Below, one piece after another: positions 6,907-52,686 of a stretch of DNA of 64,000 nucleotides. The notes beneath the pieces were generated by a model. The model was not told the DNA's origin. It did no database searches and was given only the letters and a program-made list of their open reading frames with translations. Both the position numbers and the translations under genes were made by a program. This stretch comes from an uncultured Bacteroidales bacterium. GTDB lineage: Bacteria > Bacteroidota > Bacteroidia > Bacteroidales > CAZLJX01. The number at the start of each line of letters is the position of its first letter. Within the stretch, counting starts at the first letter, position 1. The stretch lies in assembly GCA_964559985.1 (NCBI GenBank), contig CAZLJX010000003.1, positions 16,450 to 80,449 of the forward strand, given 5' to 3'.

Positions 6907-7983
6907 ATGAAAAAACTTTTACTCACAATGGCCAGCCTGCTTAGCCTTGGAATGTTGATGGCACAAACCGATCTGTTTATTTCTGAATATGTTGAAGGAT
7001 CGGGCAACAGTAAAGCAATTGAAATTTATAACCCTACTGCTAACGCCATCAGTCTGACGAATTATTACGTTGCCCGTTTCAGCAATGGTTCAACCGGTTA
7101 TTCCGGAGGTGGAATTACCCAGCTTTCAGGTACTATTCAGCCATACTCCGTTTTTATATTGGTAAACGGGCAAACCACTTCAACTTCAACCTCACCTGCC
7201 TGCAGCCCTGTATTGCAAGGCCTTATCGTCCCCAATGGCGGTTCTATTCCCGGCATGATGGATATTCCTTATCCTTCACCAACCTATATGAATGGAAATG
7301 ACGCCATTGCCATTATGAAAGATATTAATGGTGACGGTACACCTGAGCTTCCTGTTGACCTTTTCGGACAAACAGGATTGCTTGGCACCATTGAAGCCGA
7401 AACAGGATGGTCAAACATTAAAGACACCCTGGTTACCTATTATGTCAAAGTGATTAACGGAACCGATACCACCTGGGTTGAAGTGCAAAGCACCATTGCC
7501 AATTATATTGTCAAAGCCAAGGACAATACCGGGCAATATTACGGGCCATTCTGGATGTGCTGGACAAAAGACCATACCTTGAAACGCAAACCAAATGTTG
7601 TTGACGGGGTTAAAACTAACCCGACTGCTGGTTTTTCTGTTTCTGTGCAGTGGGATACTTTACCGGGTGGCGAAGATATCTGGACCGACCTTGGACACCA
7701 CGATTGTGTAGCTGATCCCAATTACCACAGCGTTGCCACGATAAAAAATACCTTTATTTCGGTTTATCCCAACCCGGCACAGGATGTAATTAATCTTGTT
7801 TCGAACTACCCGGTTGAAAAAATCGAAATTTTAAATATTACCGGACAGGTTATCAGGCAGATAAGCGATGTATCGGGCAATATTATCTCTATCAGTGACA
7901 ACAACCTGAAACCAGGCGTTTACCTCGTAAAGGTTTATACCAATAACCATCAGACAGCCATTCAGAAGTTGCTGATTGAGTAA
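6907..7983 (+). CDS. secreted lamin-tail-domain (LTD) protein with T9SS C-terminal sorting domain
   Basis: 358 aa with a signal peptide. DLFISEYVEGSGNSKAIEIYNPT...YYVARFSNG matches the LTD module at the N-terminus of ExeM/NucH-type extracellular nucleases. C-terminus ISVYPNPAQDVINL...GVYLVKVYTNNHQTAIQKLLIE is a typical T9SS CTD. Confidence 0.7.
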   Translation: MKKLLLTMASLLSLGMLMAQTDLFISEYVEGSGNSKAIEIYNPTANAISLTNYYVARFSNGSTGYSGGGITQLSGTIQPYSVFILVNGQTTSTSTSPACSPVLQGLIVPNGGSIPGMMDIPYPSPTYMNGNDAIAIMKDINGDGTPELPVDLFGQTGLLGTIEAETGWSNIKDTLVTYYVKVINGTDTTWVEVQSTIANYIVKAKDNTGQYYGPFWMCWTKDHTLKRKPNVVDGVKTNPTAGFSVSVQWDTLPGGEDIWTDLGHHDCVADPNYHSVATIKNTFISVYPNPAQDVINLVSNYPVEKIEILNITGQVIRQISDVSGNIISISDNNLKPGVYLVKVYTNNHQTAIQKLLIE

Positions 7984-16226: not shown

Positions 16227-16895
16227 ATGAAAAAATCACTGTCCGGTTGGTTGCCCGTGCTTACCTTTATATTTGCCGGTTGCAGTGTAATGAAAGTTTC
16301 ACAACGCGATCCTGCCGATATAAAAGATCTTTATCTGGTTCATCCTGTTTCGGAAATAGAATATGTAACCAAAGGGAACCGGATGCAATACAGCAGAAAC
16401 TTTTCCGATAGCTGCACGCGCATCATGGCTGTCGAATTGCCTGTTTTGCTGCCCGATCGCAATGTCCGGCACATGGAATATGATATAGACACCACCCGAA
16501 TGCTTGAACAAGAAGTTGCCAGATTATTTCAGTACATCGGGGACAGAAAAGAAATTGCAAATTTATGCATCAACCGTACGATTGATGAAATTCTTGCCAG
16601 CCGTAATATTGATTATGCCATGTTTTTATGGGCTACCGGCTATACCCGCACAAACAGCAATTTTGCCGGACAAATTGCTTTAGGAGTAGCTGTTGCTATT
16701 ATTTCTGTCGGAAGTGTTTATTACGCCCCGGTAAAATCAGTTGTCAACCTTAAAGTAATCATCATTGACAGGCAGAATAAGAATATTGCCATGTATAACC
16801 ATCAATACCTGCAAAATTATGATCCGCTCAAACCCCGCGATATGCGCATTGCCCTGAAAAATCTTACACATCGCTATTTTTATAAAAACAGGTAG
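16227..16895 (+). CDS. hypothetical lipoprotein
   Basis: 222 aa. Lipobox-like LTFIFAGCSV. Starts 4 nt after the valS stop. One internal hydrophobic segment (IALGVAVAIISVGSVYY). No motif recognised. Confidence 0.5.
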   Translation: MKKSLSGWLPVLTFIFAGCSVMKVSQRDPADIKDLYLVHPVSEIEYVTKGNRMQYSRNFSDSCTRIMAVELPVLLPDRNVRHMEYDIDTTRMLEQEVARLFQYIGDRKEIANLCINRTIDEILASRNIDYAMFLWATGYTRTNSNFAGQIALGVAVAIISVGSVYYAPVKSVVNLKVIIIDRQNKNIAMYNHQYLQNYDPLKPRDMRIALKNLTHRYFYKNR

Positions 16896-19495: not shown

Positions 19496-20083
19496 CTGTG
19501 ATATTTTTTTCTGCTTTGGTTTTTTATCGGCCGAAAAACCGAATTTCCCGATTTGTTTTCCGAGTGCATAATAATTTCCGTGAGCATAACATAACAACCC
19601 GTTTCCGGTAAGTTTGTACTGGCTGATGTTTTTGTCGTAAAGTTCTTCATTGCCATGAATGGCTTTCACCTCGGCCATAAACATGTGGTGCGACCCCAGT
19701 GGTATAATATCAGTTACAGCACATTCGATATTCAGGGGCGACTGAAGAATAAGCGGGGCATTGACTACCGATGCAGGTACAGGAGTCAGGCCGGTTACGC
19801 TGAATTTATCAATATCCCTTCCCGATTTGATGCCGCAGAAATCAGTTTCATCAACCATATCGGGTGTGGTCAGATTGATAACAAATGCCCTTGTACGGCT
19901 GATAATATCGAATGAATAACGCTCCGGCCGCAATGAAATATAACACATTGGCGGACTGGTGCATAAGGTTCCTGTCCATGCTACAGTGACCAGATTATAT
20001 TCTTCCTCATTTTCGCCACAACTTACCAGAACTGCCGGTAACGGATAAATCATGGTGCCGGCTTTTAACAAAATTTTTCCCAT
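19484..20083 (-). CDS. flavin reductase-like (FMN-binding split-barrel) protein
   Basis: 199 aa. YPLPAVLVSCG...YNLVTVAWTGTLCTSPPMCYISLRPERYSFDII...AFVINL matches the flavin reductase-like domain pattern. Lys-rich C-terminal tail KKPKQKKISQKKR. Confidence 0.75.
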   Translation of the reverse strand: MGKILLKAGTMIYPLPAVLVSCGENEEEYNLVTVAWTGTLCTSPPMCYISLRPERYSFDIISRTRAFVINLTTPDMVDETDFCGIKSGRDIDKFSVTGLTPVPASVVNAPLILQSPLNIECAVTDIIPLGSHHMFMAEVKAIHGNEELYDKNISQYKLTGNGLLCYAHGNYYALGKQIGKFGFSADKKPKQKKISQKKR

Positions 20084-20172
20084 TTTACCTGCATTTTGTT
20101 ACTATTTTGATTTTTACAAAGTAAATATACATTTTTTTTCTTTTTTGCAGAAGGAAAATTACAGCCGGCATA

Positions 20173-20204
20173 TTGACTTTGGCATTTAAAATGTTGTATA
20201 TTTG
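20173..20204 (+). promoter_or_regulatory. candidate Bacteroidota sigma-A promoter (TTG-N21-TATATTTG) with no downstream + strand ORF
   Basis: TTG at 20173-20175 and TATATTTG at 20197-20204, separated by 21 nt. This fits the Bacteroides-type -33/-7 consensus TTG/TAnnTTTG. Confidence 0.35.
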
Positions 20205-20209
20205 TATCG

Positions 20210-20273
20210 GTTCCACGGGGTGTGAAAATACCTCAAGAACCCCCTCCCAAGGCTACTGGTCTTGGGTTTTTTT
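20210..20273 (+). ncRNA. candidate ~60-nt small RNA (orphan promoter plus intrinsic terminator), convergent with the nuclease-like gene
   Basis: Lies downstream of the promoter above. 5' hairpin: GGTTC..GGGGT-GTGAAAAT-ACCTC..GAACC. 3' hairpin: CCCAAG-GCTACTGGT-CTTGGG followed by T7 (20267-20273). No ORF. The T-tail orientation fits only the + strand. Confidence 0.25.
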
Positions 20274-20796
20274 ATTTCCAATTCAGTAATTCATCAATAA
20301 TTCCTTCGTTATAATCACGCTTTGTTATTAAGACAACATTATTGTTTTTGATTATCATCAACCCATATAGATCATTGCTCTTCCGGAAAGATTCTTTCAC
20401 ACCATCAACTACGTTTCCCAAATTCATACTATCGCAATTGACGCAATAGAACCTTGCCTGACTTTCATCCCTGATATTATTGTAAAGGGTGTTTTTGGTA
20501 TTCCCTTCAGTAGTTTTAATATCAAAGACGACATCATTAATGTAGCAATCAGGGTTTTTGGTTCTCTCAATTTCCTTCTTTGTTTTATCGTCAACTGCTT
20601 TAGCCTTGAACCTAACCCTTTCGCCATTATTAACAAGTTTTTGGGCAGCAATTAATTCTTTTTTATTTAACGAAACATCCTTCTCTTTTAAACAGTATCC
20701 ACCGGATTTATTATTAAAAGGAATAACAACCTCATGAACTCCTTTTTCGAAGAAGCGCAAAAAATTAATCAACAATAAGCTTTTTAATACGCTCAA
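20272..20796 (-). CDS. stand-alone PD-(D/E)xK-like protein resembling C-terminal nuclease domains of polymorphic/CDI toxins (function tentative)
   Basis: 174 aa. ...AAQKLVNNGERVRFKAK...KNPDCYINDVVFDIKTTEGN has a PD followed 8 residues later by D-I-K, in the context seen in restriction-endonuclease-fold toxin domains. There is no in-frame ATG near the 5' end; the track start is TTG. Overlaps the upstream cyclase gene by 32 nt. Very AT-rich. Confidence 0.5.
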   Translation of the reverse strand: MSVLKSLLLINFLRFFEKGVHEVVIPFNNKSGGYCLKEKDVSLNKKELIAAQKLVNNGERVRFKAKAVDDKTKKEIERTKNPDCYINDVVFDIKTTEGNTKNTLYNNIRDESQARFYCVNCDSMNLGNVVDGVKESFRKSNDLYGLMIIKNNNVVLITKRDYNEGIIDELLNWK

Positions 20797-22159
20797 TCTG
20801 AAGTTGTTTGTTCACCTCACGCAGGTTGTTGGCAGTGCGTGTAAAATACTGATGATTCGAAATAAATTTTACCTGTATTTTATTCCAGTCATTGATGTTG
20901 GTAATCTTATTCTGTGCCTTCAATTCTTCAAATAAGGTATTTGAAACCGGTATGAAATCACTTCGTCCAAGATAGTCGAGATCAGAATCACACATAATTT
21001 TTTCAAGCGTATTTTTTGGTACAGGTGGCAGTTTGGTAGCCATTATCAACTGGCAGATTTTTTCAATCTGTTCATCGGTATATTTATATTTTGGTAAGAA
21101 TTCTTTCGCAATTTCGGTACCAAAAAATTCATGATTGTCATATCCTTTGATATGGCCAGCATCGTGAAATAAAGCGGCTGTTTTCAGCAATAAAATTTCT
21201 TCTTCGCTGACTCCTTCACCCAGTCCTATAAGTTCAACCTGATTGACAACATCAATGGTATGCTTAAAATTATGATACAATAAAAACCTGGGTAATTCTT
21301 TTTCAAGCATATCGAGAATAATTTCCTGCAGATCGGCAAACTGGCGAAGCAGGTATTTAATAATATAGGCATGATTTGGCAGATGCGAAAATCCATCGGC
21401 GCACAGGTGGGGTTTTATTCCCGTAACATTATACATTTCAATGTCGCCAATATATTTTACAGGCATTTTTCCGCAATATTCACATATAAAATATTCACTT
21501 ACCAGCTCATAAGTCATAAGTGAAATGGTGATATTGCCAAATTTACCGGATGATTGCAACCGGCTGGCAATGTTTACTGTATCGCCCTTGATATTGTATG
21601 CCACTTTTTTCCGTCCGAAAGTGGAGACTGTAACCGGCCCGGTATGAATACCAATGCGCAGATCCCAGACATTTTCGCCGTTTTCGAGCGTGCGGTTGGC
21701 TTTGCGGTATAAAAGGTAATGCATCTCCAGGGCTGCCTGTACCACATCGAGCGGGTTGGTGATGTTTTTTACCGGAATACCTCCGGTGCACATATATGTA
21801 TCGCCAATGGTTTTAATTTTCTCAATTTTATACTTCGATACAATGTTATCAAACTGGATAAACATCCCGTCAAGTTCATCAATGATGTCGTGTGATAATT
21901 CAAGATCAGAAATTTTTGTAAATCCCTGTATATCAGCAAAAAGAACAGTGGCCATTTTGAATTTGCTGATCCGTTCTTCATCAGCACTCTGTCCTGATTG
22001 TGTGCTGATCTGCTGGGCAACCTTTATCTGCTCGTCCAGCTTTTTCTGAAGTTCTTCGTTCTTTGCTGTCAGCTCTTTCACCAAACCGGTAAGTTCCTGG
22101 TTATGTTTTATCAACATAGCGATACGTTTGACCAGGTCTTTTTCATTCGGTTTGTTCAT
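20765..22159 (-). CDS. class III adenylate/guanylate cyclase fused to a PDE-like HD phosphohydrolase domain
   Basis: 464 aa. N-terminal coiled coil (ELTGLVKELTAKNEELQKKLDEQ). Cyclase motifs VLFADIQGFT, KIKTIGDTYMC, RIGIHTGPV, GDTVNIASRLQS, so the metal Asp, Lys, Asn and Arg are all present. HD domain: YHNFKHTIDVVNQV...AALFHDAGH...CDSDLDYLG. A TATGTTTG -7-like box lies at 22192-22199 on the - strand. Confidence 0.85.
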   Translation of the reverse strand: MNKPNEKDLVKRIAMLIKHNQELTGLVKELTAKNEELQKKLDEQIKVAQQISTQSGQSADEERISKFKMATVLFADIQGFTKISDLELSHDIIDELDGMFIQFDNIVSKYKIEKIKTIGDTYMCTGGIPVKNITNPLDVVQAALEMHYLLYRKANRTLENGENVWDLRIGIHTGPVTVSTFGRKKVAYNIKGDTVNIASRLQSSGKFGNITISLMTYELVSEYFICEYCGKMPVKYIGDIEMYNVTGIKPHLCADGFSHLPNHAYIIKYLLRQFADLQEIILDMLEKELPRFLLYHNFKHTIDVVNQVELIGLGEGVSEEEILLLKTAALFHDAGHIKGYDNHEFFGTEIAKEFLPKYKYTDEQIEKICQLIMATKLPPVPKNTLEKIMCDSDLDYLGRSDFIPVSNTLFEELKAQNKITNINDWNKIQVKFISNHQYFTRTANNLREVNKQLQIERIKKLIVD

Positions 22160-23568: not shown

Positions 23569-25116
23569 TCAGTAAACAAAAAACCTTTTAAGTTTACAAT
23601 TTTTCGAGGTGGTCAACCTGAAATAATAAATCCCGGGATTTAACCCCGCGGTATTAAAATATTCGATATATTTTCCGGTAGTCATACTGTTATTAGTAAG
23701 AATTTCAGCCACAATACGACCCATGTTATCCAACACAGCGAGGTTAACTACCTCAGGCCGGCGCAGTTTGAATGAATAATAAACTTTTTCAATGGCCGGG
23801 TTAGGAAATACATTCATTTCATAAACCTCATGCTGAAAGGGGCTTTCGATGGGTGTCTGATTCATATCAACCAAAGCAGTCCATATACTGAGTTGCGTGT
23901 TATCGAGCCTTGTCCAGATTGGCCTTACAATATCGTTATGAGCAGTAATGTTGTTGTAATCGCCAAAAAACACGTACGAAACAGGGAGGAAAGGAGATTC
24001 GCTGATACAAAAATTTTCAAAACTGGTTCCTCCGTCACGCGAAACAGCTAAAAAAACATCGGTATTATTATCATTGTAATAACGCCGGTCGTAAAATACA
24101 AAATAGAGGTAACCATTGGTCTGATCGATGGTCATCCATGTAAAAAACTGGTGGGTGGCCGTATTGTCATCATTTACCCTGACAGGCTGACTCCAGGTGT
24201 TTCCCCCATCGGTTGATTCTGAAAGCCAGACATCGGTATCATCTTCTCCGTTACGCTGATCGGTCCAGTTTACATATATAGTTCCCCTGTAAGGGCTGTT
24301 GCTGGTATCGCATGCAGTTACAGGAAGTCCGTTGCACCTGTATATTCCCGGGACATTGTAATCCCATCCACCCGGCTGGTCAGCAATAAAAATATCATTT
24401 TCGAGCCATGTTTCTCCCATATCGGTTGAACGATCGAACATAATGCCCACCGGTCCCGACCATGCCACATAAACCTCGCCGTTGGGGCCAACGGCCGGTA
24501 CAGCACCTTCCACGGTATTGTCAGAATCAATGCAATCGCCTCCTTGCTGGCTTATGCGGCGTACAGTATTCCAGGTAATGCCGGCATCTTCTGACCGTGC
24601 AAATAAAATCAATGAACTGTCAGATGAAAGGCCGCTTCCGTAGCTATCGAACTGTGTCCATGTAACATAAATATTGTTGTTTCTACGGTCAACCACAGCC
24701 CATTCTTTATCCTGTTCCTTGTTGCCATTGAGAAAAGTAAATGACCCGTTATTCCATGTAACACCATGATTGATAGATTTTTGACAAACAATCCGATCAA
24801 TCCAGTTTCCCTGAAGCGGGTTGGATAAATGAAAAAAATAGAAGGCTCCGGAAGTATCGGTAATAATACATGGATCGCCCCATACACCGTAGGATGATGA
24901 TAAATTCCCTTTTGTCCACGTGCGGCCTGTATCAGACGAATAAAAAAACATGTTGATATTGGCTGCAGCAACCATATAAGTAGGGTTTTTCGGATCGATG
25001 CAAATACCGGGTTCTTCAGGGTTCCCGGTATTGGTTATCATGATATTGCTGTATTGACCCTTAACCTGCAGCATGGCAAGCATTATTATAAACAGTATGA
25101 AAAGAGACCACCTCAT
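23569..25116 (-). CDS. BNR/Asp-box repeat (sialidase-fold) protein with T9SS C-terminal domain
   Basis: 515 aa with a signal peptide. Six SxDxGxTW-type boxes: SSDTGRTW, SINHGVTW, SEDAGITW, STDMGETW, STDGGNTW, SRDGGTSF. CTD: MNVFPNPAIEKVYY...GIYYFRLTTSKNCKLKRFFVY. Confidence 0.75.
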   Translation of the reverse strand: MRWSLFILFIIMLAMLQVKGQYSNIMITNTGNPEEPGICIDPKNPTYMVAAANINMFFYSSDTGRTWTKGNLSSSYGVWGDPCIITDTSGAFYFFHLSNPLQGNWIDRIVCQKSINHGVTWNNGSFTFLNGNKEQDKEWAVVDRRNNNIYVTWTQFDSYGSGLSSDSSLILFARSEDAGITWNTVRRISQQGGDCIDSDNTVEGAVPAVGPNGEVYVAWSGPVGIMFDRSTDMGETWLENDIFIADQPGGWDYNVPGIYRCNGLPVTACDTSNSPYRGTIYVNWTDQRNGEDDTDVWLSESTDGGNTWSQPVRVNDDNTATHQFFTWMTIDQTNGYLYFVFYDRRYYNDNNTDVFLAVSRDGGTSFENFCISESPFLPVSYVFFGDYNNITAHNDIVRPIWTRLDNTQLSIWTALVDMNQTPIESPFQHEVYEMNVFPNPAIEKVYYSFKLRRPEVVNLAVLDNMGRIVAEILTNNSMTTGKYIEYFNTAGLNPGIYYFRLTTSKNCKLKRFFVY

Positions 25117-25419
25117 CGAATATAATTTTAAGTGAATTGCCCTATAAAGTTAAGCTATTTTAATCTGAAAACACAATATTATAGCCCGTTTTTCCGGTTA
25201 CTGAATACCAATTTACGAATGAAAGAAGGTTAAATATATCTCTTTAATAACTTCAAAAATTATAATGAAGACCTATCGTTTTCAAATCAGGCTTATTATC
25301 TAAAAGCAAAGCTGGTAATCAATAAATTATTGTCTTTCATATTTTTATTTTCGGTAAAAAAAGATATATTTGTTTAACATTTGGCCTTAGCAAATCAACC
25401 TGTTCTAAAAAAAAGTCAC

Positions 25420-27795
25420 ATGAAAAAAATATTTTACACAGGAATAGCCATTATTTTACTGGCAGGCATAAACAGCTGTAAAAAAGATGATAATACGATT
25501 AACCCCGGTGATGTGGTTATTTCTGACAAGGTAAAAGTGATCGATGATCAGGCCTGGAACAATAATTTTGTGTCGTTTGACACGGCAAACAATATTATTG
25601 TATTGAATGAAGCCATTAGTACCGTAAAATCCTTTAAAACCGGCGATATTATTCTTTCATCCGCAGGAGAAGGATTATTGAAAAAGGTTAAAAACATCAG
25701 TCAGAGTGATGGCCAGCTTATAATAGAAACCGATTCGGCATGCCTGACAGAGGTTATACAACAGGGATTGATTGAATTTGAAGTGCCACTGACCTCCACC
25801 ATGATAAAAAGCATTGATTACCATTATCCCGGGATGGTGTTAAAAAACACAGACCTGAAAAGTACAGACCAGACCATGTTAGCATGGGATATAAATATTG
25901 TGCTTTATGATTATGATGGCAACCAGGCAACCACAGGCGACCAGATAAAACTTCTAGGTAATTTAAACTGTAACTGGACGATATCCACAAAAATTGATAT
26001 TGGATTTTTTGAGGGCTTAAAAGAGGTAAAATTTGGTTTTGAATCGGGTGAAAACATGGATTTGCAACTGGTTGCCGGATTGCAATATAGTTTTGAGAAA
26101 AAATTTACCCTTGCCACTGTTAATTTTGCGCCTATTACCATCATGGTTGGGCCGGTACCTGTCGTATTTACACCGCAATTTAAAATTGTTGCAGGTGTCG
26201 ACGGGTATGCCAATGCATCGGTAACTTCAGAAGTCGGGCAGAGTATTTCGTTTAACGCAGGGATAAGATATCTGAAAAACCAGGGATGGGCACCCTACCA
26301 GTCTTTTACAAAAAGCCTAACTTTTGACCCGCCTCAGTTGAACATGAATGCAGGTGCAGGTGCTTATGTCAAACCTGAAATGAGTGTGAAATTATATAGC
26401 GTTGCCGGTCCTTTTGCAAACCTTAAAATTTATGGTAAACTGAATGCAAACCTCCTTGAATCGCCATGGTGGAAGCTTTATGGAGGGATGACCATGAACG
26501 CCGGTGTAAAAATGGAAATTTTTAACAGGTTTCAGTTAGATTTTACCGTCAGCGATCTTATTAAGTACGAAATAGTATTAAGTCAGGCAACTACGCCACC
26601 TGTAACCATACCCTCAGTTACAACCACCTCAATTACAGATATATTCCAGTCAGGAGCCACCGGAGGTGGAAATGTAACTTCATCCGGAAATGGTACGGTA
26701 ACGGCAAGAGGTATATGCTGGAATACCTCTCAAAATCCTGTTGTTACAAACAACCACACTTCCGATGGTACCGGGACCGGGAGTTTTACCAGTAATATTA
26801 CAGGGTTAACAGCCAATACAACCTACTTTGTCAGGGCTTATGCTACCAACAGTGCCGGTACCGCTTATGGTAACCAGGTAAATTTTACCACTTCTCCCGT
26901 TCTGCAAATACCGGTAGTGGTTACCGGTAATGCCTCCAATATAACAAGTATAAGCGCTACTGTGGGTGGCGCAGTAACTTCCGATGGCAATGCTTCTGTT
27001 TCAGAAAGAGGGATTTACTGGGGTAGTCAGGCTAACCCTGTAAGCACCGGAACCAAATTGCCAATTGGATCAGGAACAGGTTCCTTTTCAGCGCAACTTA
27101 CTGATTTAATTTCTTCTACAACCTATTATTATGTAGCCTATGCAATCAACAGTGTTGGTGAAGCACGAGGCAGTGAATTAATTTTTACCACTGCTTACCA
27201 GGGGCAACCCGGCACAGTTACAGATATAGAAGGTAATATTTATAATACGGTCATCATTGGTTCACAGGAGTGGATGGCTGAAAACCTGAGAACCGGCAAA
27301 TACAATAATGGCAATGATATTCCAAAAATAACCGATAATAATACCTGGGTCAACCTCTCCGGTTCAGGTTACTGCTGGTATAATAATGATAGTACTGCTT
27401 ATGCGCTGATATACGGAGCATTATATAACTGGTACACCATTGAAACAGGCAATCTCTGCCCCACCGGCTGGCATGTTCCATCAGATGCCGAGTGGAGTAC
27501 TATGGTTGATTTTGCAGGTGGAGCATCAATAGCCGGAGGGAAACTGAAAGCTACCAGCGGTTGGTCCAACAACGGTAACGGAACAGATGATTACGGCTAC
27601 ACAGCCATGCCCGGCGGCTATCGTAACTACGACGGAACATTCGGGTATATCACCAACTTTGGTATGTGGTGGAGTGCCACCGAAAACAATAATAATAACG
27701 CATGGTTAAGAAGTATGTATTACAACAACAACAGCGTGGGAAGAAACCAGAATGCCAAACGTTATGGATTTTCAGTCCGTTGCATTAAAAATTAA
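25420..27795 (+). CDS. lipoprotein with an unassigned N-terminal half, two Ig/FN3-like repeats and a C-terminal FISUMP (Fibrobacter succinogenes major paralogous) domain
   Basis: ATG at 25420 (MKKIFYTGIAIILLAGINSCKKDD, lipobox) is preferred over the TTG at 25381. C-terminus VTDIEGNIYNTVIIGSQEWMAENL...YGALYNWYT...CPTGWHVPSDAEWSTM...GGYR...MWWSATE...YGFSVRCIKN matches the FISUMP pattern. Confidence 0.75.
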   Translation: MKKIFYTGIAIILLAGINSCKKDDNTINPGDVVISDKVKVIDDQAWNNNFVSFDTANNIIVLNEAISTVKSFKTGDIILSSAGEGLLKKVKNISQSDGQLIIETDSACLTEVIQQGLIEFEVPLTSTMIKSIDYHYPGMVLKNTDLKSTDQTMLAWDINIVLYDYDGNQATTGDQIKLLGNLNCNWTISTKIDIGFFEGLKEVKFGFESGENMDLQLVAGLQYSFEKKFTLATVNFAPITIMVGPVPVVFTPQFKIVAGVDGYANASVTSEVGQSISFNAGIRYLKNQGWAPYQSFTKSLTFDPPQLNMNAGAGAYVKPEMSVKLYSVAGPFANLKIYGKLNANLLESPWWKLYGGMTMNAGVKMEIFNRFQLDFTVSDLIKYEIVLSQATTPPVTIPSVTTTSITDIFQSGATGGGNVTSSGNGTVTARGICWNTSQNPVVTNNHTSDGTGTGSFTSNITGLTANTTYFVRAYATNSAGTAYGNQVNFTTSPVLQIPVVVTGNASNITSISATVGGAVTSDGNASVSERGIYWGSQANPVSTGTKLPIGSGTGSFSAQLTDLISSTTYYYVAYAINSVGEARGSELIFTTAYQGQPGTVTDIEGNIYNTVIIGSQEWMAENLRTGKYNNGNDIPKITDNNTWVNLSGSGYCWYNNDSTAYALIYGALYNWYTIETGNLCPTGWHVPSDAEWSTMVDFAGGASIAGGKLKATSGWSNNGNGTDDYGYTAMPGGYRNYDGTFGYITNFGMWWSATENNNNNAWLRSMYYNNNSVGRNQNAKRYGFSVRCIKN
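26611..27192 (+). repeat. two 94-aa in-frame protein repeats in a 300-nt register inside the FISUMP lipoprotein gene
   Basis: Repeat 1 (26611-26892): PSVTTTSITDI...ARGICWNTSQNPV...GTGTGSFTSNITGLTANTTYFVRAYATNSAGTAYGNQVNFTT. Repeat 2 (26911-27192): PVVVTGNASNI...ERGIYWGSQANPV...GSGTGSFSAQLTDLISSTTYYYVAYAINSVGEARGSELIFTT. Confidence 0.6.
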
Positions 27796-47701: not shown

Positions 47702-48233
47702 TCCGGAGTATATCTGCTGCCAGAATGCGTTCTTCGGTTTTCAATGATGTCATATTGACAAATATTTTGGGTTTGTCGTTTTGCAGCCCGAATCCGATGG
47801 ATACATCACCACTTTCGACATATTTTGATAATCCTGTAATAGTTAGTATTTTTCTTGCTTTAACAATGCTTACCGATGATTGTACGCCCGGCATAATATA
47901 GGCCAGATCACAACCATCAAGGTTACCTTCAAGTTCAGTTACCAGTACTGCACGAATCTTATAACTTGCCGGAAGTTGTGAAATGAGTTCGTTTTTAAAG
48001 ATTTTGGTTTCATTATCATAAATGATCAGCATCACAATATCGGTGCGGTTACCAATGGCATTGTCAAATTTAATTACCTTTTGAATCAGGGCTGCCTGAA
48101 TGGCAATTGGAACCTGCAACCCCTGCCCGGAAATTTGTCCAGGAATAATAAACAAAAAGGCAATGAATACCAGCCTTTGGCAATAATGCCGGCAAAATTC
48201 TGCAATATAACTGATATATTTGCCTTTTCTCAT
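47682..48233 (-). CDS. YfiR-family (DUF4154) periplasmic protein
   Basis: 183 aa with an N-terminal hydrophobic leader. The segment ...GCDLAYIMPG...KILTITGLSKYVESGDVSIGFGLQNDKPKIFVNMTSLKTEERILAADILRIAKV follows the DUF4154 pattern (C-x-hydrophobic run, TVSD-like, G-x-I-x-F, R/K-hydrophobic-x-F-x-hydrophobic-N, S-x-x-L-L-R-L-A). Confidence 0.7.
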   Translation of the reverse strand: MRKGKYISYIAEFCRHYCQRLVFIAFLFIIPGQISGQGLQVPIAIQAALIQKVIKFDNAIGNRTDIVMLIIYDNETKIFKNELISQLPASYKIRAVLVTELEGNLDGCDLAYIMPGVQSSVSIVKARKILTITGLSKYVESGDVSIGFGLQNDKPKIFVNMTSLKTEERILAADILRIAKVYK

Positions 48234-48299
48234 CTTATATGCCTGATAGCTCTATTTTGATCTTCTTATTTACGGTTAATATTTCCGGTTTAGGTTTAA

Positions 48300-48328
48300 C
48301 AAAAATAACATTTTTTTTTTCTTTTCAA
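48300..48328 (-). promoter_or_regulatory. candidate promoter of the yfiR-like operon
   Basis: On the - strand, TATTTTTG (complement of 48300-48307) lies 67 nt upstream of the start, with TTG (complement of 48326-48328) 18 nt further upstream. That spacing is slightly short of the usual 19-21 nt. Confidence 0.3.
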
Positions 48329-48585
48329 TGAAAAATTGTGTTTGTATAAAAAATAAGATTATTCTCTGATCCTTTAAACATTGAATGTTTTTTCAGACTA
48401 AATACAATGATACAATTTACTAAACTTACAAAAGACAGAAACAAAATGAATGGTTTTTAAGTTAAAGAAATGGTTGCTGTTGAATGAAAAAAATGAAGTT
48501 CATTAAACTATTTTAAATTTACAGTATCAAATTAACAATTTATTTCAAAATAATATAGTTTTATCAACAAGATAATGTTTTTACA

Positions 48586-51072
48586 ATGAAATGGAATTTT
48601 TTGATTTACATTGCTATTACCTTACTACTGATAATTAGTAATTTACCCGGATCATATTCACAGCCACAGGGAAAACAACAGGGCATGCCAGCCGAAGGTA
48701 TCCTTTCGGGCATTGTAAAAGATAAAACCACGGGGCAGGGTATTGAATATGCCAGTGTAGCGCTTTATAAAATGAAAGACTCAAGCCTGGTAAACGGCAC
48801 TATTTCAAACCAGAAAGGCGAATTCCGTTTCGAAAAACTACCTTACGGTATGTACAAAGTTCACGTAAAATTCTTAGGTTTCGAAGCGACAGATATTCCA
48901 CGTGTGCTTGTATCGCCGAAAACTCCTGATGTAAATCTTGGAGAAATTATACTTCAGCCTGCCTCAAAATTGCTTGATGATGTAAACGTTACCGCAAAAA
49001 AGGAAATGATGACTTATAACCTCGATAAGAAGGTTTTTACTGTTGACCAGAATATTGCAGCACAAGGAGGAACCCTTGCCGATGTAATGCAGAATATTCC
49101 TTCGGTAAATGTTGATATTGACGGCAATGTCAGCCTCAGGGGCAGTGAAAACGTATCCATCCTGATTGACGGAAAACCTTCGCAGATAGGTAGTGTTGAT
49201 GAGATACCGGCTTCATTGGTCGAAAGCGTTGAAATTGTTACAAATCCATCAGCCAAATACGATCCCGATGGTGTGTCGGGCATCATCAATATCGTCATGA
49301 AAAAGAAAAAAGAACCCGGCTATAATGCTATGTTGCAATTAAATGCCGGAACCGGAGACAAATACAACGGAAGCCTCAATTTCAACTACCGATACAACCG
49401 TTTAAACTTATATATCAACAGTGCATTCCGCCAGTTTGCCATGAAAGGGGCCAGTCTCACTGACCGTGAATCTGTTATCCGCGATACACTTTCCTATCTT
49501 TCCCAGGATGGCAGCTTCAGACGAAAAGGACAATTCGGCAACATTACCCCAGGTTTTGATTATTCTGTTACTGATAAAACCCGCATTTCGGGATCGGCAA
49601 CTTTTGGCTTAAGAGGATTCGCAACCAATGAAAATACAAACTATCAGAATAAAAATTATTTATCGGAAAAAATTCTAGAAACCCAAAGATATTCAGATAT
49701 TCAGATGAGCAGCCATAATATGGAATATAGCCTTGGATTCAAACACAGCTTTGAAGAAAAAAAACATGAGCTTAGCGCAGATATTTTTTATTCGTCAGAT
49801 GAAGGAGAGAACACCAATGATCTATCAACCGATTTACTATTCCCGATTTACCACAATAGTGACCAGCTGCAAAAAACCAAAAACCTGATGAATTCAGATG
49901 TACTGACCCTGCAAACCGATTATTTACGCCCAATTGGCAATGGCGGCCGGCTCGAAACCGGTCTGAAAGCCACATGGAGGCAAACCGATTATGACTATTC
50001 TTTCAGTAATTTTGACAGCATTGTGCAGCAGTGGGTAGCCGATGCAAATTATACCAATCATTTTGTTTATGCTACTGCTGTTTATGCCGGTTATGCCATG
50101 TATGCAGGATTTTCAGGTGCTTTTTCGTACCAGGCAGGGCTAAGGTTAGAGCAAGCTTATACCCATGGCAATCAAAAAACGTCTGATATGCAGTTCGATA
50201 AACCCTACTTCAGCCTTTTTCCCACCTTATCGCTCAAATATGACATCAGTGAAACACAAGCGTTGCAGGCAAACTATTCGCGAAGGGTCAACCGTCCGGG
50301 ATTTATGCATGTCAATCCGTTTAAAAATTTCTCCGATCCTTATAATATTTCAGCCGGGAACCCAAGACTTGATCCGGAGTATGCCAACACAGCAGAATTA
50401 AGCCACCAGGCAAGATTTGGTATGACAAACCTGACAACAACATTATTTATCAGGCAAACCGACAATATGATTACCCGAATTACCACCATGGATACTACAG
50501 GCATTGCACTTACTACATTTCAGAATATCAATAAAAACAGGAACATGGGTGCAGAAATAGTAGTGATGCAACCCCTTGCCAGGTGGTGGAAAATAACCGG
50601 AAATTTCAGCTATTTCAAAGCACAGTTATCCGGATCGGGCATTTCGGCAAAAAGCTTAGAGAGTAACAGTTGGACAGCCAGACTGGTATCGAATATGAAT
50701 CTGCCCTATGGTATAGATTTTCAGATTATGGCCAATTACCGCTCACCTGTGGTTTCAACCGGTGCGGGAGGAGGACCCGGCAGGATGTTCGAAATGGGAA
50801 GTATAGGCAAAACAAAAGAAACCTATTCGGTCGATCTGGGCATGAAAAAAGAAATCGTCAAAGGAAAAGCCTCCCTTACCCTTAGGGTGAGCGATGTTTT
50901 TAAAACTTCAAAATACAGAAATACCTCCTGGGGTGATAATTTTACCCTTAATACAACACGAACCCGTGAAAGCCGTATCGTTTTTATAGGTTTCAGTTAC
51001 AAAATCAACGAATACCGCAGGCCTAAAGAAACCAGACGCTCTGAAGACCAGATGCAGGAAGAATATGAATAA
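48586..51072 (+). CDS. TonB-dependent receptor-like outer-membrane beta-barrel with CarboxypepD_reg-like N-domain
   Basis: 828 aa with a signal peptide. LSGIVKDKTTGQGIEYASVALY...GEFRFEKLPYGMYKVHVKFLGF, plug-like VSLRGSENVSILIDGKP and VESVEIVTNPSAKYDPDGVSGIINIV, then a long beta-rich barrel. Confidence 0.8.
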   Translation: MKWNFLIYIAITLLLIISNLPGSYSQPQGKQQGMPAEGILSGIVKDKTTGQGIEYASVALYKMKDSSLVNGTISNQKGEFRFEKLPYGMYKVHVKFLGFEATDIPRVLVSPKTPDVNLGEIILQPASKLLDDVNVTAKKEMMTYNLDKKVFTVDQNIAAQGGTLADVMQNIPSVNVDIDGNVSLRGSENVSILIDGKPSQIGSVDEIPASLVESVEIVTNPSAKYDPDGVSGIINIVMKKKKEPGYNAMLQLNAGTGDKYNGSLNFNYRYNRLNLYINSAFRQFAMKGASLTDRESVIRDTLSYLSQDGSFRRKGQFGNITPGFDYSVTDKTRISGSATFGLRGFATNENTNYQNKNYLSEKILETQRYSDIQMSSHNMEYSLGFKHSFEEKKHELSADIFYSSDEGENTNDLSTDLLFPIYHNSDQLQKTKNLMNSDVLTLQTDYLRPIGNGGRLETGLKATWRQTDYDYSFSNFDSIVQQWVADANYTNHFVYATAVYAGYAMYAGFSGAFSYQAGLRLEQAYTHGNQKTSDMQFDKPYFSLFPTLSLKYDISETQALQANYSRRVNRPGFMHVNPFKNFSDPYNISAGNPRLDPEYANTAELSHQARFGMTNLTTTLFIRQTDNMITRITTMDTTGIALTTFQNINKNRNMGAEIVVMQPLARWWKITGNFSYFKAQLSGSGISAKSLESNSWTARLVSNMNLPYGIDFQIMANYRSPVVSTGAGGGPGRMFEMGSIGKTKETYSVDLGMKKEIVKGKASLTLRVSDVFKTSKYRNTSWGDNFTLNTTRTRESRIVFIGFSYKINEYRRPKETRRSEDQMQEEYE

Positions 51073-51192
51073 ACTTTTAAAGTTCAACATACCTTAACAA
51101 ATCCAAAAATATTTTATTTTTTCGGAAATCGTTATAATCAACTTAATCATTGCTTAAGGCTAAATGCTTGTTTTTCTTTCAGCATTTATGCT

Positions 51193-51351
51193 TCAGGGTT
51201 TCATGCAATTAAATTTCGACAAATATTTGCTCCGTGCTTTTTTAGGATCCATGCCCTGGGCAATATAAATTTTTGTTCTTGAATCAATTACAACTTCAAT
51301 CATTTTTTTCATATCGGGTGATTTAAAAGCACTTGTCCTTTTATCGTACAT
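51193..51351 (-). CDS. possible 52-aa small ORF in an otherwise non-coding gap
   Basis: Hand-translated, below the ORF-track cutoff: MYDKRTSAFKSPDMKKMIEVVIDSRTKIYIAQGMDPKKARSKYLSKFNCMKP. ATG start and TGA stop. No motif recognised. Confidence 0.2.
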   Translation of the reverse strand: MYDKRTSAFKSPDMKKMIEVVIDSRTKIYIAQGMDPKKARSKYLSKFNCMKP

Positions 51352-51891
51352 TTATTTTTTCCTTTCAATTTATAAACAGTTTCTATATTTCACATGCTGA
51401 ATTTTTATCGACAAAAATTTGAAAAATCATTTATGGTGACTAAAAAAAATGCACCGATAATAAACAATTAATGCAAGGTCTGAAGAATTTCCCCAGAATG
51501 TTTAAAAAATTTCCTGATTTTACAGTTGGTATTTATCAAAACCAGAATGTTTGTAATATAACGCTTAATTATGAGAATAGTTTGTAATGAGTAAAATATT
51601 CATCAATATTTTAATTTTATACTGATTTAATGCATATAGGATTGTCGGAGTATATTTTTAAATGCCAGTTTAATTTTTTAGAATAAAGTAACTTTCTTTT
51701 TGAAAATACGAACCGATGTTATAAAAAACCTGTAACTGATAAAGGGATTCTATGGCTGGAAAAACCGATTGAAACATAAGAACCGGAATTTAAGGAAAAA
51801 AAGTTGAAAAATATTTCAACAGAAGTATCTGCAATCCTGACAGATTTTTTATATTTATGCACGGATAATATTGATTTAAAAGGTAAAAAAT

Positions 51892-52686
51892 ATGTCACTC
51901 AAATGCGTTTTAGGATTTCATCAATGGGATGGTTGCACCTGCACCATTTGTGGAAAAATAAGAAATGAGCAACACATACTGAACGAGGATTGTGAAAAAT
52001 GCTCAAAATGTGGTTCGGCTATTCCAAATCAACACAACTGGTCAACAGATTGTCAGAAATGCTCAAAATGTGGCAAAACACGCGATGTTGAACACCATTG
52101 GATTAAAAATTGTGAAAAATGTTCGAAATGTGGTAAAACCCGGACCGATCAGCACCATATGGTGGATGGAATTTGCCAGGTTTGTGGAAACGGCATTTTT
52201 ACCGACGAAACCAACGGGCTTGGATATAAAATCGTTAAAATTGGTACACAGATTATTATGGCTGAAAATTTTGCCCGGATTCCGGCATCCGGTCATTACT
52301 GGGCCTATGACGGGGAAAAGAAAAATGTTGTGAAAAACGGATATCTGTACGATTGGGAAACCGCAAGGTCAATTGTCCCGAAAGGATGGCATCTTCCTTC
52401 AAAAGAAGAATGGGAAACTTTAATGAAATTCTTAGGTGGAAAAGACAAAGAGGTTTATGAACAAATGAAACCGGGCGGAGAAAGCGGATTTGAAGGATTA
52501 TTCAGCGGCTGGCGGTTTGTACGTGGCGCTTTTAACAGCCTTGGGGCAAGTGGTTATTACTGGACTGCCACCGAAGAGAGTGATAAAAAAGCCTGGTTTG
52601 TCAAAATGAGTGCCTATAAAAACCGCGTGGAAATAGATAAAGGAGACAAAGGATTAGGCCTGAGTGTGAGACTTTTCCGCGATTAA
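51892..52686 (+). CDS. leaderless protein: N-terminal Cys/His tandem repeats fused to a FISUMP domain
   Basis: 264 aa. C-terminus GYKIVKIGTQIIMAENF...GYLYDWETA...PKGWHLPSKEEWETLMKFLGG...GWR...GYYWTATE...GLSVRLFRD matches the FISUMP pattern. No hydrophobic signal peptide or lipobox at the N-terminus. Confidence 0.7.
   Translation: MSLKCVLGFHQWDGCTCTICGKIRNEQHILNEDCEKCSKCGSAIPNQHNWSTDCQKCSKCGKTRDVEHHWIKNCEKCSKCGKTRTDQHHMVDGICQVCGNGIFTDETNGLGYKIVKIGTQIIMAENFARIPASGHYWAYDGEKKNVVKNGYLYDWETARSIVPKGWHLPSKEEWETLMKFLGGKDKEVYEQMKPGGESGFEGLFSGWRFVRGAFNSLGASGYYWTATEESDKKAWFVKMSAYKNRVEIDKGDKGLGLSVRLFRD
51919..52194 (+). repeat. coding tandem repeat, about 4.5 units of 20 aa / 60 nt (H-x-W-x3-C-x-K-C-S-K-C-G-K-T-R-x3)
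   Basis: TGT(G/C)A(A/G)AAATG(C/T)TC(A/G)AAATGTGG recurs at 51991, 52051 and 52111, exactly 60 nt apart. Protein units: HQWDGCTCTICGKIRNEQ / HILNEDCEKCSKCGSAIPNQ / HNWSTDCQKCSKCGKTRDVE / HHWIKNCEKCSKCGKTRTDQ / HHMVDGICQVCGNG. Confidence 0.8.

Follow-up and report, generated by a model that had tools for sequence, protein, structure and literature searches.

A cassette of about 600 nt lies directly downstream of a nucleotide cyclase gene in an uncultured Bacteroidales bacterium (CAZLJX01). It combines the end of a toxin gene, which is probably derived from a phage, with a putative small-RNA gene that runs towards it. The stretch of DNA analysed (hereafter the window) comprises 64,000 nt, positions 16,450–80,449 of the forward strand of contig CAZLJX010000003.1 (assembly GCA_964559985.1); all the coordinates given below are positions in the window, and L and P numbers designate comparison loci or contigs and proteins, respectively. 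A preliminary description of this stretch had proposed that the cyclase, which is fused to an HD domain, and the nuclease-like open reading frame (ORF) of 174 aa that overlaps it belong to a single signalling or defence module. We consider it likely instead that the cyclase-HD gene is a core gene unrelated to its neighbour and that the region 20164–20751 is a solo toxin cassette acquired from a phage together with its convergent small-RNA gene. The identity of the toxin domain, its phage homology, its lack of linkage to the cyclase, its hypervariability and the recurrence of the promoter-hairpin-terminator architecture are all directly supported by the data. The element is of a known kind (a solo MuF or contact-dependent inhibition (CDI)-type toxin cassette) and is unusual for its pairing with a small RNA. 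The features concerned are the following:

20765–22159, minus strand: cyclase-HD gene (464 aa, ATG start), encoding an N-terminal coiled coil, a class III nucleotidyl cyclase domain and an HD phosphohydrolase domain.
20272–20796, minus strand: nuclease-like ORF (174 aa, TTG start), with toxin-domain homology from residue 16–17 (about 20748–20751).
20164–20751, no strand assigned: probable phage-derived cassette, i.e. toxin C-terminal coding region and convergent small-RNA gene with its promoter, as delimited by blastn against the phage contig L093 and by a three-way alignment that sets both boundaries.
20206–20750, no strand assigned: segment hypervariable between conspecific strains, represented by two alleles, one intact (window/L007 type) and one with a frameshift and an in-frame TAA (L001/L002/L003 type).
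20178–20204, plus strand: predicted Bacteroidetes-type promoter of the small RNA, with a -33 element TTTG at 20178–20181 and a -7 element TATATTTG at 20197–20204 (exact pattern match).
20209–20273, plus strand: predicted small RNA of ~65 nt, with a 5' hairpin (20209–20241), a terminator hairpin (20246–20266) and a U-run (20267–20273).

The layout of the two ORFs is as first described: both are carried by the minus strand and share 32 nt, the 174-aa ORF being in the +1 frame relative to the cyclase, and all the motifs quoted at that time are found in the translations (FADIQGFT, KTIGDTYM, GDTVNIASR, YHNFKHTIDV, FHDAGHIKGYDNHEF and DSDLDY in the cyclase-HD protein; NPD-x8-DIK in the 174-aa ORF). 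Likewise, the 5' part of the 174-aa ORF does hold no in-frame ATG, nor any GTG, its only start candidates being TTG codons at 20796, 20775, 20772 and 20760, and no ORF of the size expected for an immunity gene follows it within 20084–20271.

The 174-aa ORF matches the Pfam family CdiA_C (PF18451) over its residues 80–153 (E 2.4e-10, 40.9 bits for a cutoff of 26.6). An AlphaFold2 model built on a 9-sequence alignment (pLDDT 85, pTM 0.80) gave only one significant Foldseek match in the PDB, 4g6v_A (probability 1.0, E 6e-4, TM 0.49/0.58, all 132 target residues aligned), which is the C-terminal toxin (CT) domain CdiA-CT of Burkholderia pseudomallei 1026b, a PD-(D/E)xK tRNase. When the family profile was compared with PDB sequences, 4g6v_A was again the only match (E 5e-7). 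Structural comparison with BFVD gave eight matches at probability 1.0, which include phage proteins annotated as 'CDI toxin-like', 'MuF-like fusion' or 'minor capsid'. The window allele retains the E, NPD, DIK (the (D/E)xK motif) and Q columns that are conserved in the family. The 174-aa ORF is, from its sequence and its predicted structure, a solo CdiA_C/Bp1026b-type PD-(D/E)xK nuclease domain: the fold is recovered and the nuclease activity is predicted. The CDI-toxin-like C-terminal fold suspected in the preliminary description is therefore borne out, by the very combination of structure prediction and Foldseek search that it had recommended.

Besides being the sole significant relative by fold and profile and belonging to the same Pfam family, the CdiA-CT domain of strain 1026b (4G6V) shares with the window protein a KNPD...D core and the conserved Q. 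The two proteins nevertheless have only ~19% identity, and at the position of the canonical DxK of the window family, the solved toxin reads D-N-Y. Furthermore, the domain from the window has neither the CdiA delivery region nor a CdiI-like immunity protein. A 21-nt insertion (7 codons, KAKAVDD, at ~20570–20590) is present in both host alleles and absent from the phage homolog; it corresponds to residues 53–63, the sole low-confidence loop of the model (pLDDT <50).

Relatives of this domain are rare. Only 10 of them were retrieved when 1.84 billion representatives were searched exhaustively with HMMER. Most are larger proteins that have the domain at their very C-terminal end, and their Pfam architectures are Portal_Mu+Phage_Mu_F+CdiA_C, Phage_Mu_F+CdiA_C or VG15+CdiA_C. 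The corresponding genes belong to head modules of the Mu-like type, in which Gp36 is followed by portal, then MuF-CT and then gpG-like Phage_tail_S. Word-indexed protein searches gave a single match for the 174-aa ORF and four for the CT profile; no relative of the CT domain was found by a pattern scan of IMG/VR and JGI metagenomes or by tblastn against 50,697 isolate phage records.

The relationship with phages extends to the nucleotide level. Using blastn against the phage contig L093, positions 20164–20316 of the window align with L093 7982–8136 at 82.6% identity and positions 20606–20750 with 7566–7710 at 70%, the CT proteins themselves being about 45% identical; this bears out the foreign origin that had been suggested for the 174-aa ORF. 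In a three-way alignment of the window, L001 and L093, the homology to the phage ends at both edges of the cassette, which is placed 14 nt after the cyclase stop codon and upstream of the flavin-reductase promoter region. The homology to the nearest phage protein, P0122 (residues 702–853), begins at ~20748–20751, i.e. 14–17 nt past the cyclase stop. The 32-nt overlap between the two genes is therefore an incidental open frame, since it lies upstream of the start of the homology. A tblastn search detected no remnant of a portal or MuF gene anywhere in the window, which does not carry a full-length MuF toxin.

These alignments identify the 174-aa ORF as the last ~150 codons of a Portal-MuF polymorphic-toxin gene of a Mu-like Bacteroidetes phage, present as a solo cassette. 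It has the features of such cassettes: a lone C-terminal toxin domain, no trafficking domain, no proper start codon and homology to the 3' ends of full-length toxin genes. The preliminary description, which mentioned an 'orphan toxin-CT remnant' as an alternative, had come near the truth on this point and had seen neither the phage origin nor the convergent small-RNA gene. Stand-alone homologs of the CT domain also occur in other Bacteroidetes chromosomes among unrelated neighbours, never next to a cyclase, and the called start of all of these stand-alone ORFs (4/4) is a codon other than ATG. One of these relatives, the 256-aa protein P0132 (L010:6001–9813), is encoded directly after an asparagine synthase gene, at the edge of an islet encoding HicA, HepT/MNT, a CAP12-PCTIR TIR protein and a DNA methyltransferase.

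Several of these features have precedents. The Bp1026b tRNase domain is already listed among the toxin domains of MuF proteins, and, among described MuF toxins, ~89% have a small immunity ORF behind them (Jamet et al. 2017, PMC5576092). MuF delivery is listed for Bacteroidetes and solo toxin cassettes are known to occur as toxin-immunity pairs (Zhang et al. 2012, PMC3482391), and Bacteroidales examples of MuF polymorphic toxins or polyvalent phage head proteins are available (PMC11699363). The homologs of the 174-aa ORF conform to the MuF polymorphic toxins, as they are Portal_Mu/Phage_Mu_F proteins that carry the same C-terminal nuclease and are encoded in Mu-like head modules. In contrast, the window contains the C-terminal cassette alone, with neither a MuF domain nor a prophage, and the position of the immunity ORF is occupied, in the window as in the related phages, by a convergent small-RNA gene. 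Solo toxin cassettes are resembled in having a toxin module devoid of start codon, a partner element on its 3' side, variability between strains and conserved segments that could serve as recombination anchors. However, solo cassettes are normally found in arrays beside a full-length toxin gene and are paired with protein immunity genes, whereas this one is isolated between housekeeping genes, has its full-length counterpart on a phage and has a predicted RNA as its partner.

The cassette is hypervariable within the species. Comparison with conspecific contigs (cyclase 99% identical) showed 95–100% identity in the flanks and only 40–77% in 20206–20750 (100-nt windows). The allele of L001, L002 and L003, which come from three independent samples, is a diverged homolog with two lesions, a 2-bp indel in an A-run and an in-frame TAA located inside the NPDC-Y-IND motif; the allele of the window and of L007 is intact. 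The frameshift (L001:6480–6500, equivalent to ~20640 in the window) affects a run of nine A whose length differs by 2 bp and which may in principle be prone to slippage, but the TAA of this allele is fixed in the three samples. In the alignable 5' part of the alleles, dS is 1.07 and dN/dS is 0.16, compared to a dS of 0.055–0.061 for the flanking genes; this indicates that the alleles diverged as coding sequences and are either far older than their surroundings or imported. Moreover, the window carries a mosaic allele: the 5' half is nearest to the L001 allele, whereas the C-terminus of the CT domain and the RNA body are nearest to the phage. The swapped unit thus consists of the C-terminal part of the toxin together with the RNA body, between conserved anchors, which is the logic described for toxin-immunity cassettes (Zhang et al. 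2012, PMC3482391). No empty site, in which the cyclase gene would be directly followed by the flavin reductase gene, was found in the same species.

A small-RNA gene is predicted to follow the toxin stop codon in the convergent orientation; it would consist of a promoter, a ~65-nt RNA folding into two hairpins and an intrinsic terminator. Both the promoter and the terminator face the plus strand and are antisense to the 174-aa ORF, and the terminal run of seven U (20267–20273) overlaps the complement of the toxin stop codon (20272–20274). The -7 element matches TAnnTTTG, the -7 consensus of Bacteroides (PMC4747536, citing Bayley et al.). Folding of the plus strand with RNAfold gave -27.3 kcal/mol, z = -3.2 and a minimum free energy structure frequency of 0.73, compared to z = -0.5 for the opposite strand. 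Identity to the phage L093 is 89% in the ~80 nt past the CT stop and in the RNA with its promoter, compared to about 45% for the CT proteins, and L093 preserves the RNA fold with a compensatory change from U-A to C-G. The L001 allele has the same promoter-hairpin-terminator architecture with a different sequence, and the window, L001 and the phage share a 42-nt promoter segment with no more than two mismatches.

Several further searches were negative. Rfam gave nothing meaningful for 19900–20900, even at a permissive E-value; the base-pairing in trans of each small RNA with its own CT coding region was not above that of shuffled RNAs; a scan of IMG/VR with the 18-nt promoter core gave two matches, both due to chance and with no CT domain nearby; and, in the search for a protein immunity partner, the window showed no homolog of the ORFs located behind the CT genes of L012 and L093. 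The 5' hairpin of the window RNA (20216–20239), of the form GGGG(C/U)GU..AAA..CCUC(UG) with G-U pairs, is also present in the otherwise different RNAs of L093, L111, L117, L119 and L121. This shared hairpin may reflect either a common protein-binding motif or shared ancestry; it is also, more speculatively, faintly reminiscent of the acceptor helix of tRNA-Ala, for which the window offers no tRNA gene for comparison.

The same architecture recurs behind other toxin genes. Besides L001, it was found with unrelated RNA sequences behind the CT domain in L094, L095, L096, L009 and L012; in these loci, an antisense TAnnTTTG located 56–82 nt from the end of the searched segment is followed by a hairpin and by a U-run at the stop codon. 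L010 carries a longer version of the element and L097 lacks the terminator, and the candidate RNAs of the cassette loci have fold z-scores of -1.8 to -4.4. A further 26 Portal-MuF loci were collected from IMG/VR, an extension being defined there as C-terminal and of at least 130 aa. An antisense -7 motif is located 54–78 nt past the stop codon in 19 of the 21 Portal-MuF genes with a toxin extension, versus none of the four genes without extension. By comparison, the promoter motif is correctly placed behind 10 of 430 ordinary long ORFs, and the motif together with a T-run behind two of them. With a stricter test that requires the promoter and a perfect-stem terminator, 11 of 27 non-duplicate cassette loci were positive versus 0 of 606 control ORFs (Fisher p ~9e-17). 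In L103, L115, L117 and L119, the toxin stop codon is even inside the terminator stem.

The extensions of the IMG/VR set are CdiA_C-like or LPD3 ('large polyvalent protein-associated domain 3') domains. The loci with LPD3 extensions that have an antisense promoter and a structured RNA are L102, L104, L107–L109, L113 and L125; the RNA element is absent behind the PBECR2 RNase extension of L101 and behind one extension of unknown type. Behind the toxin, the related phages carry no ORF for an immunity protein: the next gene encodes the gpG-like Phage_tail_S protein, after a gap of ~100 nt. In our survey of the literature, we came across no account of polymorphic toxins with an RNA partner, and a toxin cassette with a conserved convergent small RNA in place of the immunity protein is, as far as we found, undescribed. 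We tentatively propose, as a possibility that is more doubtful than the phage origin itself, that in Mu-like Bacteroidetes phages and in the chromosomal cassettes derived from them, the partner of the head-protein toxin (CdiA_C-type nuclease or LPD3) would be a small RNA and not an immunity protein.

Convergent antisense RNAs that overlap the 3' end of a toxin gene are known from type I toxin-antitoxin (TA) loci such as txpA/RatA, bsrG/SR4 and Fst/RNA II, and RalR/RalA provides an example in which the toxin is a nuclease. The cassette shares with these loci the architecture predicted from its sequence, i.e. a convergent small-RNA gene with a promoter of its own and with a terminator that lies at the 3' end of the toxin or overlaps it, as well as an association with phages, type I loci being frequently associated with prophages. 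It differs from them in that the toxin is a nuclease domain of 150 aa, usually fused to a large structural protein, instead of a small membrane peptide, and in that no pairing site was found in the toxin coding region.

Taken together, the data would fit the following scenario. In the phage, the nuclease would be packaged with the MuF protein and injected. The small RNA would take the role that an immunity gene has in a toxin-immunity cassette, and could act either as an antisense to the 3' untranslated part of the toxin-bearing mRNA, in a type I-like manner, or by binding directly to the nuclease. In the bacterial lineage studied here, the cassette would have lodged by chance between two core genes and strains would then have swapped it by recombination, with crossovers probably anchored in the conserved catalytic core and in the conserved promoter segment of the RNA. 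The chromosomal copy of the toxin part is probably silent or barely translated, since it has no canonical start codon and no promoter motif of its own and has decayed in sister strains; the RNA gene, whose promoter is intact, would be the part most likely to be expressed.

Several observations weigh against this interpretation. The promoter is only a consensus match, and the full -33/-7 pattern occurs four times in the whole window where five occurrences are expected. The MAFFT alignment used for the RNAalifold analysis of the shared 5' hairpin loses the structural register. The loci in which the architecture recurs are not all independent and represent roughly 15–20 distinct RNA sequence types. 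The RNA accompanies LPD3 extensions and is absent from the PBECR2 extension; its presence with LPD3 implies that it is not specific to this nuclease, which weakens a model in which it mimics the nuclease substrate and leaves room for a role in the regulation of the phage late operon. Finally, a translated and functional nuclease would agree with the dN/dS of 0.16 between its alleles and with its intact catalytic motif, the TTG located 5 nt past the cyclase stop could support reinitiation, and the terminator scan detected no terminator between the cyclase and the 174-aa ORF.

The latter observations are also those that speak for a domesticated TA module, in which the nuclease would be translated, from a TTG or by termination-reinitiation on the cyclase transcript, and restrained by the RNA, with a role in addiction or abortive infection. 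The catalytic E, PD, DxK and Q are intact in the ORF of both the window and L007; stand-alone homologs exist in other Bacteroidetes chromosomes, one of them beside the TA and defence islet mentioned above; and, on reading its sequence, another protein, P0131, shows a motif resembling TAnnTTTG immediately upstream of the TTG at which it starts. However, no such promoter motif was seen upstream of the 174-aa ORF on reading the sequence, none of the four stand-alone copies has an ATG start, in three independent samples the conspecific allele is disrupted by both a frameshift and a nonsense codon, and the signal of purifying selection may date from the time that the alleles spent inside phage genes. 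We regard a domesticated module as unlikely.

It is less likely still that the whole cassette is an inert relic, i.e. the decaying debris of an old illegitimate recombination with phage DNA whose hairpins would be those of a phage intergenic terminator region. The low GC content of the cassette, its lack of a start codon, the rarity of its lineage in databases and the pseudogene state of the L001-type allele are all what debris would show. However, the promoter segment of the RNA is nearly invariant across the two host alleles and the phage, and very divergent alleles (dS about 1) amid near-identical flanks imply repeated exchange or retention rather than simple decay. In addition, the terminator is functional in form in the antisense direction only and, in many independent loci, comes together with a promoter.

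The linkage of the two genes was examined by the co-occurrence survey that the preliminary description had called for. A single-protein search of genome contigs with the cyclase gave only one locus. The survey was therefore extended to 80 cyclase-HD loci from metagenomes obtained by profile scan, which together with L004, L005 and L008 make 83 loci from other lineages; each of them was scanned within 3 kb with the hidden Markov model of the CT domain on six-frame translations and by tblastn. None of the 83 loci has a CT nuclease domain within 3 kb of the cyclase-HD homolog, while the positive control (the window) and the conspecific L001 score strongly. The first ORF downstream of the cyclase-HD gene falls into 17 clusters among 69 loci, and the neighbourhoods of cyclase homologs at 77%, 66% and 58% identity are unlike that of the window and consist of housekeeping genes. 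Adjacency is thus not conserved, and the claim of a cyclase-plus-nuclease module for signalling or defence is contradicted by this survey, by the size of the cyclase family (>7,466 homologs) and by its variable neighbours.

A programmed frameshift leading out of the cyclase into the CT frame was rejected on the sequence: the latter is the +1 frame, so that a -1 slip on the AAAAAG run would miss it, and no homolog is extended. A former cyclase-HD-nuclease fusion is ruled out likewise, as no cyclase-HD homolog has a C-terminal extension (none among 14 aligned members).

The comparison with Pycsar and CBASS leads to the same result. The likeness is limited to a class III-type cyclase that adjoins a nuclease-fold protein. 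These systems are characterised by an operon conserved across genomes, an effector bearing a sensor domain, and a cyclase that is patchy, accessory and associated with defence islands, none of which was found; instead, the operon is not conserved, the nuclease is devoid of a sensor domain and the cyclase is encoded by a core gene. The sole Pfam match above cutoff in the 174-aa ORF is CdiA_C, its model is one compact domain and no nucleotide-sensor domain was detected. PADLOC gave generic weak PycC matches for the cyclase (best E 2.5e-14) and no match for the 174-aa ORF; NCBIfam gave nothing above its curated cutoffs. It is thus very improbable that, as initially modelled, the neighbouring nuclease is an anti-phage effector switched on by a messenger that the cyclase makes, the signal being reset by the HD domain: the adjacency on one strand with a 32-nt overlap and the weak PycC matches are outweighed by the complete lack of co-occurrence, the constant length and core status of the cyclase family, the nuclease homologs being C-termini of phage head proteins, the incidental nature of the overlap and the decay of the conspecific nuclease allele while the cyclase is 99% conserved. 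Refuting a cyclase-plus-nuclease defence system prevents a false lead.

The 464-aa protein is a conserved core signalling enzyme of Bacteroidales, in which a class III cyclase is fused to an HD phosphohydrolase. Pfam detects Guanylate_cyc (E 1.3e-39), as expected from the initial class III assignment, and HD (E 1.6e-10), and the top PDB matches are AC9, AC8 and AC5 at about 1e-38. The cyclase homology domain contains the metal-binding Asp pair and the transition-state Asn and Arg of class III nucleotidyl cyclases; FADIQG, IGD and GDTVNIASR are invariant or nearly so over the 14 aligned family members, and the HD residues are also invariant. Nearly all of the 120 homologs listed among those scored have 462–470 aa and are about 62% identical; they come from Bacteroidales metagenome-assembled genomes, the nearest named lineage being Salinivirgaceae. 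The dN/dS of the cyclase relative to the conspecific strain L001 is 0.044. The huge size of the family, its uniform length, its invariant residues and this low dN/dS indicate a conserved core signalling gene. With about 466 aa, the cyclase-HD protein is among the most conserved and abundant Bacteroidales signalling proteins that lack characterisation. It carries the adenine-type Lys (KTIGD), and the second substrate-specifying position (Y-x-IKGDTVN) is variable in the family (N, S, E, D or T).

The HD half had been likened to class I cyclic-nucleotide phosphodiesterases (PDEs). Its assignment to the HD domain holds, and its best matches among solved structures, when it is searched alone, are all class I PDEs (PDE9A, E 0.009; TbrPDEB1, E 0.03). 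However, these matches span only the first two metal-binding motifs, and PDEase_I is below the Pfam cutoff (20.9 bits for a cutoff of 24.8) and covers only positions 1–52 of the 238 of the profile. The PDE-like character is a reasonable lead rather than a demonstrated membership, and the sequence is that of a generic member of the HD domain family. The fusion may both synthesise and degrade a cyclic nucleotide and merits a study of its own.

The cassette lies among the genes of PGI, DUF898, the flavin reductase, the cyclase and RsmB. The drop in GC content that had been reported for both genes is confirmed for the 174-aa ORF (33.2%), which alone is clearly low; with 38.6% versus 40.6% for the whole window, the cyclase is not. 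Elsewhere, the GC content of 1-kb windows is 29–47%, and the lowest-GC kilobases (51001–52000, 29.1%; 48001–49000, 33.0%) may be other acquired segments. Further along, 23569–25116 and 25381–27795 encode a BNR-repeat protein with a T9SS (type IX secretion) Por_Secre_tail sorting domain and a Fib_succ_major-domain protein, respectively (Pfam on the identical genes of L001); these neighbours are consistent with a Bacteroidota host.

Polymorphic toxin cassettes have been defined by pairs of toxin and immunity proteins, and a whole group of phage MuF-borne toxins lacks the immunity ORF and has instead a conserved promoter-RNA-terminator unit that abuts the toxin stop codon. If the partner of these toxins is indeed the small RNA, an RNA would be the immunity factor or antitoxin of a polymorphic toxin, acting as a cis-antisense of the 3' region of the mRNA or as a direct inhibitor or decoy, and the chromosomal copy would provide orphan immunity or antisense interference against related phages. 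If the RNA neutralises or regulates the toxin, RNA-based toxin-antitoxin logic would extend to polymorphic toxins delivered by phages, the tolerance of the phages to their own nuclease would be explained, and small chromosomal cassettes such as that of CAZLJX01 could serve as immunity or anti-phage elements.

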